Shown: in pieces, positions 2,924 to 34,250 of the stretch
How positions within the stretch are numbered: the first letter of the stretch is position 1
Layout: every line of letters begins with the position of its first letter
Source: Eubacteriales bacterium
GTDB lineage: Bacteria > Bacillota > Clostridia > Oscillospirales > CAG-272
Length of the DNA: 64,000 nt
Assembly: GCA_045632285.1 (NCBI GenBank)
Contig: JAZQWJ010000051.1
Span: 7,955 to 71,954 of the forward strand
Reading direction: 5' to 3'
Notes under the pieces: generated by a model
Told to the model about the DNA's origin: nothing
The model's input: only the letters and a program-made list of their open reading frames with translations
Databases searched by the model: none
Made by a program: the position numbers and the translations under genes

Positions 2924-4297
2924 ATGGCAAAAATGTGGGCGGGGAGGACCGCGGGCGACACCGATCGCGTGGCGGACGATTTCAATTCCTCCATTCACTT
3001 TGACAGCAGAATGTATAAGCAGGATATCACGGGCAGTATGGCGCACGCTGCCATGCTTGCAAAGCAGGGGATCATCACCGAGGCCGAGGCGGCACAGCTG
3101 ATCGACGGCCTTGCCGGCATCCTTTCCGATCTGGATAGCGGTGCTTTGGAGATCGATATGACTGCCGAGGATATCCATATGTTTGTCGAGCAGGTGCTGA
3201 CCGAGCGGCTGGGCGACGTGGGCAAAAAGCTTCACACTGCAAGATCCCGCAACGATCAGGTGGCGCTGGACGTCCGGATGTATCTGCGCGAGGAGACCGA
3301 CGGTATTATGGCACAGCTTCGCACGTTGCTTTCGGTGCTTTGCGACAGTGCCGAGCAATATCAGGCTACCATCATGCCGGGCTATACCCATCTGCAGCGT
3401 GCCCAGCCCATCACCTTTGGTCATTGGCTGATGGCCTATGCCATGATGCTGCTGCGCGATCTTGACAGGCTTTCTGACTGTCGCCGCCGCATCAACGTAT
3501 CTCCCATCGGCTGTTGCGCGCTGGCGGGCACCACCTACAACACCGACCGCCGCTTTGAGGCGGAGCGCCTTGGGTTTGACGGCATCTGCCGCAATTCTCT
3601 GGACGGCGTTTCCGACCGTGATTTCTGCCTTGAATTCATGTCCGCCTGCTCGGTGATGATGATGCACCTTTCCCGTATGTCAGAGGAGATCATTTTGTAT
3701 TCCAGCTGGGAGTTTGCCTTTATCGAGCTGTCGGATGCTTATACCACGGGCTCTTCTATTATGCCGCAAAAGAAAAACTCGGATATGGCCGAGCTGATCC
3801 GCGGCAAGACAGGGCGCGTGTACGGCGATCTGATGGCGCTGCTTACCACCTTAAAGGGTTTGCCCCTTGCCTATAACAAGGATATGCAAGAGGATAAGGA
3901 GAGCCTGTTTGACGCGGTGGATACCGTGAAAATGTGCCTTGCGGTGTTGACGCCGATGCTGAAGACCATGACCGTTAAGCCCCAAAATATGAAAAAAGCG
4001 GCACAGGGCGGCTTTATCAACGCCACCGACTTGGCCGATTATCTGGTGGGCAAGGGGATTCCCTTCCGCACCGCATACAAGATCTCCGGCAGCCTGGTTG
4101 CCCATTGCATCAAGGAAGGCACCGTGTTGGAGGAGCTGCCGCTTGAGGTCTATCGCACCTACAGCGAACTGTTTGACGAAACGCTGTATGATGCCATTGA
4201 CCTGACCGCCTGTGTCGAGCGTCGCATTTCCGAGGGTGGTACCTCTGCTGCATCTGTGCGGGCGCAGATCGCCTACGTAAAGGAGCAACTGCAATGA
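2924..4297 (+). CDS. argH: Argininosuccinate lyase
   Basis: Begins MAKMWAGR. Carries the fumarate-lyase signature region GSSIMPQKKN. AGGAG RBS 8 nt upstream of the ATG at 2924. Confidence 0.95.
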   Translation: MAKMWAGRTAGDTDRVADDFNSSIHFDSRMYKQDITGSMAHAAMLAKQGIITEAEAAQLIDGLAGILSDLDSGALEIDMTAEDIHMFVEQVLTERLGDVGKKLHTARSRNDQVALDVRMYLREETDGIMAQLRTLLSVLCDSAEQYQATIMPGYTHLQRAQPITFGHWLMAYAMMLLRDLDRLSDCRRRINVSPIGCCALAGTTYNTDRRFEAERLGFDGICRNSLDGVSDRDFCLEFMSACSVMMMHLSRMSEEIILYSSWEFAFIELSDAYTTGSSIMPQKKNSDMAELIRGKTGRVYGDLMALLTTLKGLPLAYNKDMQEDKESLFDAVDTVKMCLAVLTPMLKTMTVKPQNMKKAAQGGFINATDLADYLVGKGIPFRTAYKISGSLVAHCIKEGTVLEELPLEVYRTYSELFDETLYDAIDLTACVERRISEGGTSAASVRAQIAYVKEQLQ

Positions 4298-32116: not shown

Positions 32117-33378
32117 TTTCTCTTACGGCCGCATTCGTTGCAGAACTTACCGGTGTTTTTTGCGCCGCACTCCGGGCAGAACCAGCCGTCACTTTCGGGG
32201 CGCTTGGTGCCGCATTCCTGGCAGAACTTGCCGGTGCTTTGCTTACCGCAGCCGGGGCAGATCCAAGCGCCGACGGGCTCCGGCTTTTTGTTGCCGCACT
32301 CCTGACAGAATTTTCCGGTATTTTGGGCGCCGCAGGCGCAGATCCATCCGTCTGTGGGCTTTGCGGCCTGCTGCTGTTGCTGTTGCATTTGCGCACGGTT
32401 GGTCTCGGAAAATGCGCCAAAGCCACCCATTGCGTTCATACCCATGCCCATGCCAACAAAGGTGTTGGCGCCGCCGTTCGGGTTGCTGCCCGCAGCCTCA
32501 AAGCCGCGCGCCATAGCACCCTGTACATAGCCCTCGCGTACGGTGGCATCGCCCAACATAGCGCCCTGATTGCGCATATTGATCAGCTTTTTGGATTCCT
32601 CGTCATAAGAAACGCTGGCTATACCAACCGACAGGATCTCAAAGCCGCGAAGCGACTTAAAGCCCTCGTCAAGCTCGGTGGCCATATACTGCGACAGCTC
32701 GCGGGATCTGCTGGGAACGTGGGAAATTCTGATACCGTCTGCCGACATTTTATTGATGGCGGCCTGAAACGCCTCTAAAAATTCCGCGAGATATTGCTCG
32801 TTGATCGCGTTGATCTCAACGCGATCGGCGTCGCGGGGAATGGCCTCGGCATAGAATTTCAGCGGGTCGGTGATCTTGATGGAATAGGTGCCGAAGGCGC
32901 GCAAGAAAAGCTCTGCATTGTAGAAGTTGTCAAAGTAATTGACGGGGGTACGGGTGCCGAATTTGATGCCCTTGATCTCTTGCAGGTTGATAAAGAACGC
33001 CTTTTGAGAGGTGGAGGGTACGCCGCCGTATTTGATGCGGCCAAAGGTCTCTTTCAGCGAGGCACCAAACTGCCCCGCAAACAGCGAGGGCATAGCAGAG
33101 TTATCCACCTTATAGTAGCCGGGCTCGGCGGTAAAGTCCACCACCTTGCCGCCGTCCACAAGCAGCATAAACTGGTTGTCGTAAACGTGGATGATCGAGC
33201 CGTTGGAGATGGTGTCGGCCGTGCCCTTTTTGTTGTTGTTGCGCTTGTCGCCCGGGCGCACCTTTACACCCTTTGTAAAGACGACGCCCTCGCCCATACG
33301 GTCGGCCTCAAGCACCTCCTGCCAAGAGTCGGCAAGACCGCCGCCCATGCTTTGAAATACAGCTTTGATGATGCCCAT
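32113..33378 (-). CDS. SPFH/band-7 domain protein (YdjI / COG4260 virion-core-like) with three C-terminal zinc ribbons
   Basis: Start MGIIKAVFQSMGGGLADSWQE with an AAGGAG RBS. Q-rich linker (QMQQQQQQ), then three W-x-C-x2-CG-x4-GKFC-x-ECG modules. Confidence 0.75.
   Translation of the reverse strand: MGIIKAVFQSMGGGLADSWQEVLEADRMGEGVVFTKGVKVRPGDKRNNNKKGTADTISNGSIIHVYDNQFMLLVDGGKVVDFTAEPGYYKVDNSAMPSLFAGQFGASLKETFGRIKYGGVPSTSQKAFFINLQEIKGIKFGTRTPVNYFDNFYNAELFLRAFGTYSIKITDPLKFYAEAIPRDADRVEINAINEQYLAEFLEAFQAAINKMSADGIRISHVPSRSRELSQYMATELDEGFKSLRGFEILSVGIASVSYDEESKKLINMRNQGAMLGDATVREGYVQGAMARGFEAAGSNPNGGANTFVGMGMGMNAMGGFGAFSETNRAQMQQQQQQAAKPTDGWICACGAQNTGKFCQECGNKKPEPVGAWICPGCGKQSTGKFCQECGTKRPESDGWFCPECGAKNTGKFCNECGRKRN
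32116..32352 (-). repeat. Three tandem ~80-90-bp coding repeats (zinc-ribbon modules)
   Basis: CCGCATTCGTTGCAGAACTTACCGGTG..., CCGCATTCCTGGCAGAACTTGCCGGTG... and CCGCACTCCTGACAGAATTTTCCGGTA... This repeat accounts for the cluster of overlapping spurious ORFs in the track here. Confidence 0.85.
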
Positions 33379-33442
33379 TTTAAGATTCTCCTTTATGTGA
33401 TGTCGCAAAAAGGCAGATACGTGCCTTGATTTTGCGCAAATT

Positions 33443-33746
33443 TTAAAAAAGACTGCCTGTGCCCCAAGGCACAAGCAGTCACTTTGTCATGATGCCCCTT
33501 AGGGGCGCACCGAGGTGCGATTATGCAAACCCGCCGAGCCGTGTAACCGGTACCGAGAACCCTGTTTTAAACAAGGCGGTGCCCTGCCGCTCGCTTTACT
33601 GCTCCCAGCATCCTTGACCCCTGTCCGAGACAAGTCGATCGTAACAGGGAAGGGAGGTCTGCAAACCACGCGCGGACTCTATCCGGGCTCCAATTTCTGC
33701 GTGTAGGCTCCACTAACTCGATTATCACGCACTAAGCAGGCGTTTT
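33443..33746 (-). ncRNA. Unclassified structured non-coding region ending in a strong intrinsic terminator (candidate sRNA, long 3' UTR or cis-regulatory leader)
   Basis: About 300 nt with no plausible ORF between the DUF1292 stop (33747) and the SPFH operon. Minus-strand hairpins include CCCTGT...ACAGGG nested in CTCCC...GGGAG, GCAC-CTCG-GTGC, GCCCC-TAA-GGGGC and the palindrome CGGTACCG. It ends with a 13-bp imperfect stem GACTGCTTGTGCC / GGCACAGGCAGTC (one mismatch), then T6 (33443-33480). Confidence 0.45.
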
Positions 33747-34061
33747 TTACTTTTTGGGGGGCTCGGCGTCGTAGTCGATCTCTGCGGTCAGCAGGTCGTC
33801 GAAATAGTCGGCAATATCGTCGAACTCATCGTCGTCGTCAATGGTGACAAGGTTCTCTTCACCGTTTTCGACCACGGCCTTGAGAATGACGTATTCGCAG
33901 ATCTCGTCGTTGTCGTCCTCCTCGGCGGCAGCGGGGATCATAGCGTAATAGGTCGTGCCGTTCTTTTCGCAGGTGGCGATCAGCTCAAACTCGTGCTCGT
34001 TGCCCTCTTCATCCTGCAGGGTGTAGATCTCGACCTCGTTTTCTTTCATTTTTTCATCCAT
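33747..34061 (-). CDS. DUF1292 family acidic protein
   Basis: 104 aa. The pattern YTLQDEEGNEHEFELIA...GTTYYAMIP...EYVILK is typical of DUF1292. Very acidic C-terminus. Confidence 0.7.
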   Translation of the reverse strand: MDEKMKENEVEIYTLQDEEGNEHEFELIATCEKNGTTYYAMIPAAAEEDDNDEICEYVILKAVVENGEENLVTIDDDDEFDDIADYFDDLLTAEIDYDAEPPKK

Positions 34062-34195
34062 TTTATGTTACCTCATTCACCGCCGCAGCGGCCTCTCGTT
34101 GGGGTGGGAAGGCAGGATGCCTCCCTCGTGTATTATTGTACCCCATTTTTTGCAACTTGTCAAGCATTTTTCAAAAAGGAAAGAAATTCGGGTGC

Positions 34196-34224
34196 TTGCA
34201 TTTTGTGCCGCTTGGTGTTATAAT
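34196..34224 (+). promoter_or_regulatory. Sigma-A promoter with extended -10
   Basis: TTGCAT, 17 nt, TGT-TATAAT. Confidence 0.65.
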
Positions 34225-34250
34225 ATGAAAAAAACTACCGGAGGTCAACC

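Follow-up and report, generated by a model that had tools for sequence, protein, structure and literature searches.

Introduction

The minus strand of the 64,000-nt stretch of DNA analysed here (the window) carries a gene for a DUF1292 protein followed, after a few hundred nucleotides, by an operon that begins with an SPFH gene, and the locus raises the question of what the sequence between them encodes. The original prediction described a GC-rich region of about 300 nt, devoid of plausible open reading frames, full of nested minus-strand helices and closed by a strong terminator. It left three readings, namely (a) a structured 3' UTR of the DUF1292 gene or a small RNA derived from it, (b) a riboswitch or attenuator gating read-through into the SPFH operon, and (c) an independent non-coding RNA, and it had compared the region by eye with 6S and other known RNAs without a match. 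An Rfam scan, a search for homologues, a covariation analysis and an inspection of the neighbouring genes in other genomes were proposed as checks.

6S RNA is an abundant housekeeping RNA, rod-shaped with a large central bubble, that mimics an open promoter and so sequesters RNA polymerase. It sits in the active site of the sigma-A RNA polymerase holoenzyme until synthesis of a short product RNA from the 5' side of the bubble sets it free. We conclude from the sequence that the structured region at 33529-33741 on the minus strand (213 nt) most probably is such a 6S RNA (ssrS, Rfam RF00013), with a probability of about 0.92.

Results

A full-length match to the 6S RNA family

When 951 bases (window 33300-34250) were searched in Rfam with an E-value threshold, RF00013 matched the minus strand at 33524-33745 with 36.7 bits (E 1.1e-5) over the entire model (positions 1-187 of 187), and this was the sole match with E < 1. 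The sub-threshold matches to snoR9, mir-14, msiK and CLRN1-AS1 (E 4-9) were rejected as chance, that of mir-14 being the terminator hairpin. The gathering score of RF00013 is 46.4 bits, above that of the window copy, and a scan of the whole 64-kb window at gathering thresholds returned no Rfam match. In the Rfam alignment, a 43-nt insertion stands where RF00013 has a 6-nt apical loop, and the shortfall in score coincides with this insertion in the apical hairpin. An nhmmer profile built from 11 6S RNAs that pass the gathering score gave one match in the 64 kb, at 33740-33527 (E 3.7e-9), covering model positions 6-188 of 191. The dismissal of 6S by eye was therefore wrong, and the Rfam scan essentially returned a housekeeping RNA.

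Moreover, a joint alignment showed that the blocks CCUGC, CCnACA, UGCAGACCUCCC, GGGAGC, ACC.CC and ACGGC..GGCGGG are common to the clade of the window copy and to 6S RNAs scoring 51-85 bits. The limits of the 213-nt core at 33529-33741 are the outermost pairs of the closing stem in an alignment of 64 sequences. This length, like that of the clade (201-225 nt), exceeds the 160-200 nt usual for 6S RNA, an excess explained by the apical insertion, without which the RNA would measure about 180 nt. The RNA is a divergent yet genuine 6S RNA and represents neither a new RNA class nor a riboswitch.

The absence of a plausible open reading frame was borne out: the 369 nt at 33747-33378 hold only four short, GTG-initiated mechanical frames (52-63 aa), and the homologous region of relatives carries frame-breaking indels. 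The region is GC-rich in absolute terms only, its GC content (55.6%) being close to that of the window (55.2%).

Conservation next to the DUF1292 gene

The gene preceding the RNA (33747-34061, minus strand) encodes an acidic protein of 104 aa that belongs to Pfam PF06949 (E 7.6e-17); the PDB holds no relative of it by sequence. The exact protein was found only on metagenomic contigs, on which gene callers leave the 6S region blank; the contig is represented in SRR13180922 and JGI 3300041663. Eighty loci from species-representative genomes were retrieved through this protein (39-78% protein identity), and all of them belong to uncultured Clostridia, mostly Oscillospirales of animal and human guts. 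With the intergenic region of the window as query, nhmmer detected a homologue directly 3' of the DUF1292 gene in 63 of the 80 loci; the matches run from about position 10 of the query to about 230, equivalent to 33741 to about 33521 in the window, and reach E-values down to 1e-43.

Twenty of the loci linked in this way were tested in Rfam, and four (L006, L007, L029 and L039) reached the 6S gathering score with 47-49 bits. Of the 17 loci missed by nhmmer, 11 have an RNA at the equivalent position with a 6S score of 51-84.8 bits, among them those of Angelakisella, Ruminococcus, Pseudoruminococcus and the lachnospiraceous Marvinbryantia. Two further missed loci scored 43 and 35.9 bits, under the gathering score. 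A 6S homologue thus directly follows the orthologous DUF1292 gene in 76 of 79 assessable loci (15 at the gathering score, the best at 84.8 bits). The tandem spans Oscillospirales and one member of Lachnospiraceae (L074, Marvinbryantia), usually with a gap of 4-40 nt. The window copy lies within a 6S subfamily of uncultured gut Oscillospirales, and the Rfam gathering score under-calls this subfamily, as only four of the 20 clade members tested pass it.

The homologue search thus revealed a conserved RNA, and its near-constant companion is DUF1292, the SPFH operon lying downstream in only 24 of the 80 loci. These are the closest relatives, and elsewhere tRNA or other genes are found. Our literature search returned no paper naming both 6S RNA and DUF1292, and DUF1292, YrzB and UPF0473 were mentioned only incidentally. 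The DUF1292-6S tandem is strongly conserved and without prior description in the literature searched.

Fold and covariation of the conserved core

A hand-curated 6S-type structure was scored on the 64-sequence alignment, which includes the window. Standard pairs fill 97.1% of 3067 cells, versus about 40% in controls with the 3' partners shifted by 1-3 columns. Compensatory double changes occur in 24 of the 48 pairs, which form nine helices, and none of 500 shuffles reached any of the observed measures. RNAalifold independently predicts most of these helices. The structure supported is the 6S rod, with a closing stem, a central bubble (about 27 nt on the 5' side and 28 nt on the 3' side) and an internal arm. 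Conserved U-G pairs in the closing stem would be A-C mismatches on the opposite strand, and the 6S strand is therefore the minus strand.

The closing stem, formed by 33719-33741 (5' strand) and 33529-33549, is the counterpart of the 'downstream duplex', which opens during product-RNA synthesis. Its two helices (helices 1-2) comprise 20 pairs, with 95-96% of cells paired and compensatory double changes in 10 pairs. The internal, or apical, arm (33578-33691) holds the invariant blocks GGUUUGCAGACCUCCC and GGAYGYUGGGAGCAGUAAAG; its helices 3-8 are paired in 92-100% of cells, and 13 pairs show compensatory changes. The 6S RNAs of distant relatives that pass the gathering score likewise keep UGCAGACCUCCC and GGGAG without variation. 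In characterised 6S RNAs the apical arm is the side that bears the '-35-like' contact (PMC8876501). The 3' side of the bubble (33550-33577) contains a 6-bp hairpin at 33559-33577 (helix 9), which is 99.7% paired, mostly with one-sided changes and with two double changes. Free B. subtilis 6S-1 RNA likewise forms a small hairpin on the 3' side of its bubble (PMC8876501).

Folding energy as proof of the core structure was rejected, since the conserved core is no more stable than its shuffles (z -0.46). The z-score is -2.59 for the whole 321 nt and -5.69 for 33375-33530, so that most of the thermodynamic signal stems from the trailer and the terminators, and the core structure rests on covariation. 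The nested minus-strand helices noted at the outset are present, although some of them lie in the non-conserved trailer. The palindrome CGGTACCG forms no hairpin of its own; it bridges the 3' side of the bubble and the adjoining closing stem.

The predicted template for product-RNA synthesis

On its 5' side (33692-33718), the central bubble carries the motif CCnACA at 33707-33702; C43, A45 and C46 do not vary, and A47 is found in 62 of 64 sequences. The same motif occurs in the canonical set, that is, in the 6S RNAs of distant relatives that pass the gathering score. A conserved adenine beside the start and a GG at positions 4/5 or 5/6 have been described as hallmarks of product-RNA templates (PMC8414754), and the 5' bubble of the window copy has both, with GG at positions 4/5 of the product RNA and an adenine beside the predicted start. 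The product RNA is predicted to be 5'-GUAGGCUCC, templated from the C at 33703, a start placed solely by alignment with characterised 6S RNAs.

The extended apical arm

The apical arm exceeds that of usual 6S RNAs by about 30-40 nt. Its lineage-specific extension (33616-33649) consists of variable, co-varying arms and a 10-nt loop at 33629-33638, which reads UCGACUUGUC in the window and UUGACUUGUC in most relatives, the motif being found in 63 of 64 sequences. The variable arms sit between the invariant CCUCCC and GGAYGYUGGGAG and close a helix of 3-4 bp under the loop (63 of 64). Across 59 distinct arm pairs, cognate arms have a mean pairing energy of -9.7 kcal/mol, versus -4.3 kcal/mol for non-cognate arms. 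The CCCTGT/ACAGGG helix first noticed by eye is therefore real and located in this arm, with strands that co-vary across the 59 distinct sequences. All three pairs directly beneath the loop (helix 8) show A-U/G-C exchanges. Given the '-35-like' contact on the apical arm, the extension projects beyond that contact.

Canonical relatives carry a short hairpin at the apical position. Other, unrelated insertions at this position were seen in three 6S RNAs that pass the threshold (L056:3318-3542, L052:3290-3497 and L073:3274-3481). The apical tip of 6S RNA appears to tolerate growth and to be a hot spot of lineage-specific expansions.

No convincing pairing partner for the invariant apical loop was found. 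One candidate, GAYGAGTTYG (33823-33832, minus strand, in about 45 loci), offers an 8-bp complement including G-U pairs about 80-130 nt upstream, within DUF1292. It was judged not significant, because about 0.3 such matches are expected by chance per 330 nt; moreover, the motif corresponds to conserved Asp-Glu-Phe codons of DUF1292, so that the site is kept by the protein sequence. The complementarity is probably coincidental. We also noted that the first five bases of UUGACUUGUC equal the -35 consensus TTGAC.

Probable transcription unit and maturation

In the window, 5 nt separate the DUF1292 stop codon from the closing stem of the 6S RNA. Across the 64 aligned sequences the gap has a median of 17 nt, although in three it reaches 165-277 nt; of 13 more distant loci, 9 have gaps of 4-23 nt. 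Such a small gap leaves no room for a promoter, in keeping with the earlier observation that no sigma-A promoter directly precedes the region. A near-consensus sigma-A promoter (TTGACA-17-TACAAT, 11/12 matches) is found at 34135-34163 on the minus strand, and in all 64 aligned loci the DUF1292 start is preceded at short distance by a 10-12/12 match to TTGACA-17-TATAAT. Between this promoter and the 6S RNA, promoter-like sites are sporadic in the 64 loci and none is consistently placed.

Given the tiny gap, and with the only strong promoter preceding DUF1292, the 6S RNA is probably cut from a DUF1292-6S co-transcript. The promoter at 34135-34163 would drive a co-transcript ending at the terminator at 33445-33480, from which nucleases would then free and trim the 6S RNA. 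E. coli 6S RNA is processed from long precursors. In B. subtilis, the maturation of both ends of the 6S RNAs depends on RNases (PMC10578484).

Alternatively, the 6S RNA might be made from its own promoter, located towards the 3' end of the DUF1292 coding sequence, and not by processing of the mRNA. A weak candidate, TTGACG-17-GATATT (9/12 matches; 33841-33813), indeed precedes the 6S RNA by about 65 nt, and about six loci have similar sites at the same codons. In two loci with longer gaps (L057 and L074), an 11/12 promoter immediately precedes the 6S RNA, and dedicated promoters are known for the 6S RNAs of E. coli and B. subtilis. However, most of the 64 loci lack a site of at least 9/12 between the DUF1292 start and the 6S RNA, while every one of them has the strong promoter upstream of the gene; furthermore, the internal site overlaps conserved Ile-Asp-Asp and Asp-Ile codons, and its recurrence may mirror the protein sequence. 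We therefore regard an own promoter as rather unlikely, and conserved co-transcription of DUF1292 and 6S as reasonably probable. Of the readings proposed at the outset, the 3' UTR reading (a) would hold in that the RNA likely matures from the DUF1292 transcript, although the product is a functional non-coding RNA, 6S. Conversely, reading (c) was right to propose a stand-alone functional non-coding RNA, which most likely derives from the 3' part of the DUF1292 transcript instead of arising independently.

The trailer and the terminator

Between the core and the terminator lies a 3' trailer (33481-33528, minus strand) with two small hairpins, GCAC-CTCG-GTGC (33518-33507) and GCCCC-TAA-GGGGC (33506-33494). 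Both had been listed among the nested helices and are present, but as parts of the trailer they are not conserved in most relatives. Indeed, most nhmmer matches end near query positions 225-235 and only 4-5 loci run further; the trailers of relatives measure 2-124 nt and are not homologous. The trailer is probably part of a precursor and trimmed off.

The intrinsic terminator of the DUF1292-6S unit (33445-33480, minus strand) agrees with its first description. Its stem (33480-33451) has 13 pairs, of which 8 are G-C, around a 4-nt loop, and is followed by T6 at 33450-33445; the fold has an energy of -23.4 kcal/mol. A non-homologous hairpin with a T-run is found 26-167 nt after the 6S RNA in 51 of the 64 loci (median +53).

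Relation to the downstream operon

The operon of SPFH, 366-aa and TPM-domain genes follows after a spacer (window 33379-33444). A search for a sigma-A-like site (at least 8/12 matches) between the 6S RNA and the SPFH ATG found none in 19 of the 24 SPFH loci, in which spacers are short. The operon may thus depend on read-through or on another sigma factor.

This possible dependence, together with a strong terminator about 65 nt before the SPFH start, is what could speak for reading (b), a terminator-based riboswitch or attenuator that gates read-through into the SPFH/TPM-domain operon. The conserved RNA is tied to DUF1292 rather than to SPFH, however, and its conserved part stops 48 nt before the terminator stem and contains nothing that competes with that stem. 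Moreover, the linker is unconserved, the terminators of relatives are non-homologous and stand at variable distances, and the Rfam match is to 6S and to no cis-regulatory family. We consider a cis-regulatory leader extremely unlikely, and this part of the original prediction finds no support.

In some relatives, tRNA genes replace the SPFH operon a few hundred nucleotides 3' of the 6S RNA (L055:3717-3854, L066:4182-4253, L061:4115-4187 and L033:4354-4438).

Discussion

The window RNA, a 6S RNA by its homology, fold, synteny and promoter and terminator layout, is predicted to bind RNA polymerase, to template product RNAs and to accumulate as a stable, abundant species, predictions for which the 11/12 promoter feeding the unit is indirect support. 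That it might instead belong to a new family with a superficial resemblance to 6S, for example a base-pairing small RNA derived from a 3' UTR, could be argued from its Rfam score below the threshold, its unusual apical module with an invariant loop and its location in a 3' UTR, but is scarcely credible given that the RF00013 match spans the full model, that CCUGC, CCnACA, UGCAGACCUCCC, GGGAGC and ACGGC..GGCGGG recur in 51-85-bit 6S RNAs at the same genomic position, and that covariation backs exactly the 6S rod.

The closing stem, the central bubble and the pre-formed hairpin on the 3' side of the bubble are shared with B. subtilis 6S-1 (bsrA) and the 6S RNAs of lactic acid bacteria, both ends of which are trimmed by RNases (PMC8876501, PMC8414754, PMC10578484). 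The template (...CC.AC|A) and a product RNA that would start with G and contain GG are also alike. In contrast to these RNAs, the window 6S RNA has the longer apical arm with its invariant decaloop, and its neighbour is DUF1292 and not rarA or uspA. It also differs from them in starting 5 nt after a stop codon, with no space for a dedicated promoter. The E. coli bubble, unlike that of the window copy, lacks a pre-formed hairpin on its 3' side (PMC8876501). Moreover, a protein gene precedes the window 6S RNA, whereas E. coli 6S RNA is the first gene of its unit and has two promoters of its own.

The RNA may also be compared with the enterobacterial small RNAs CpxQ and SroC, which derive from 3' UTRs: its probable release from an mRNA 3' end and the shared terminator region are similar. 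However, CpxQ and SroC act by Hfq-dependent base pairing, whereas the window RNA is a 6S RNA with predicted polymerase binding, and it has an additional trailer between its 3' end and the terminator. Finally, Ms1 RNA of Actinobacteria is likewise rod-shaped and 6S-like, binds RNA polymerase and was identified largely by synteny (PMC9130861). It binds the core polymerase, belongs to another phylum and has no match here, in contrast to RF00013 itself, which the window RNA matches.

The basic picture is unchanged, since the element is an ordinary and expected housekeeping RNA. Nevertheless, a large group of uncultured gut Clostridia will look 6S-less under the Rfam gathering score; seeding RF00013 with the clade subfamily, or anchoring 6S searches on the neighbouring DUF1292 gene, would be a remedy. 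The tandem is the first genomic link of the uncharacterised DUF1292 family to transcription control, and it seems to illustrate clearly how a housekeeping non-coding RNA can be produced from an mRNA 3' end. In addition, the invariant apical loop offers a defined target for structure-function work on 6S-polymerase contacts upstream of the '-35-like' region.

More speculatively, 6S RNA might be, in Oscillospirales and in L074, the obligate 3' partner of DUF1292 in an mRNA-plus-ncRNA unit whose protein acts with 6S at the polymerase. Such a functional partnership seems improbable to us at present. If it existed, the DUF1292 protein might act as a chaperone or processing factor or, being acidic, mimic DNA, and in the clade of the window copy the UUGACUUGUC loop on the extended '-35-side' arm might be a new docking site, with DUF1292, sigma region 4 and the alpha C-terminal domain as candidate partners.

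With regard to the genes downstream, E. coli ssrS-ygfA forms a multi-gene unit with longer precursors, and ygfA, located behind ssrS, is expressed by read-through past the 6S 3' end. The window 6S RNA would similarly reside in a multi-gene unit and mature from a longer precursor. By analogy, passive read-through of the 6S terminator, with no ligand gating, may contribute to SPFH expression.

Two minor features of the spacer between 6S and SPFH were also observed. In one relative (L043:2088-4316), a 2.2-kb AT-rich insertion with its own open reading frames, mobile- or defence-like in character, separates the two. In the window, a second hairpin lies at 33404-33437 (minus strand), between the terminator and the SPFH ribosome-binding site, with the sequence GCGCAAAA-UCA-AGGCA-CGUAUC-UGCCU-UUUUGCG. 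A sigma-54 reading of GGCAC-N-TGC at 33412-33424 was rejected, the GG-to-GC spacing being 9 nt and not 10. The arrangement of A-tract, hairpin and T-tract resembles a weak or bidirectional terminator, and an element of this kind occurs once in the window and twice in the longer intergenic region of L001 (about 3565-3605 and 3690-3735).
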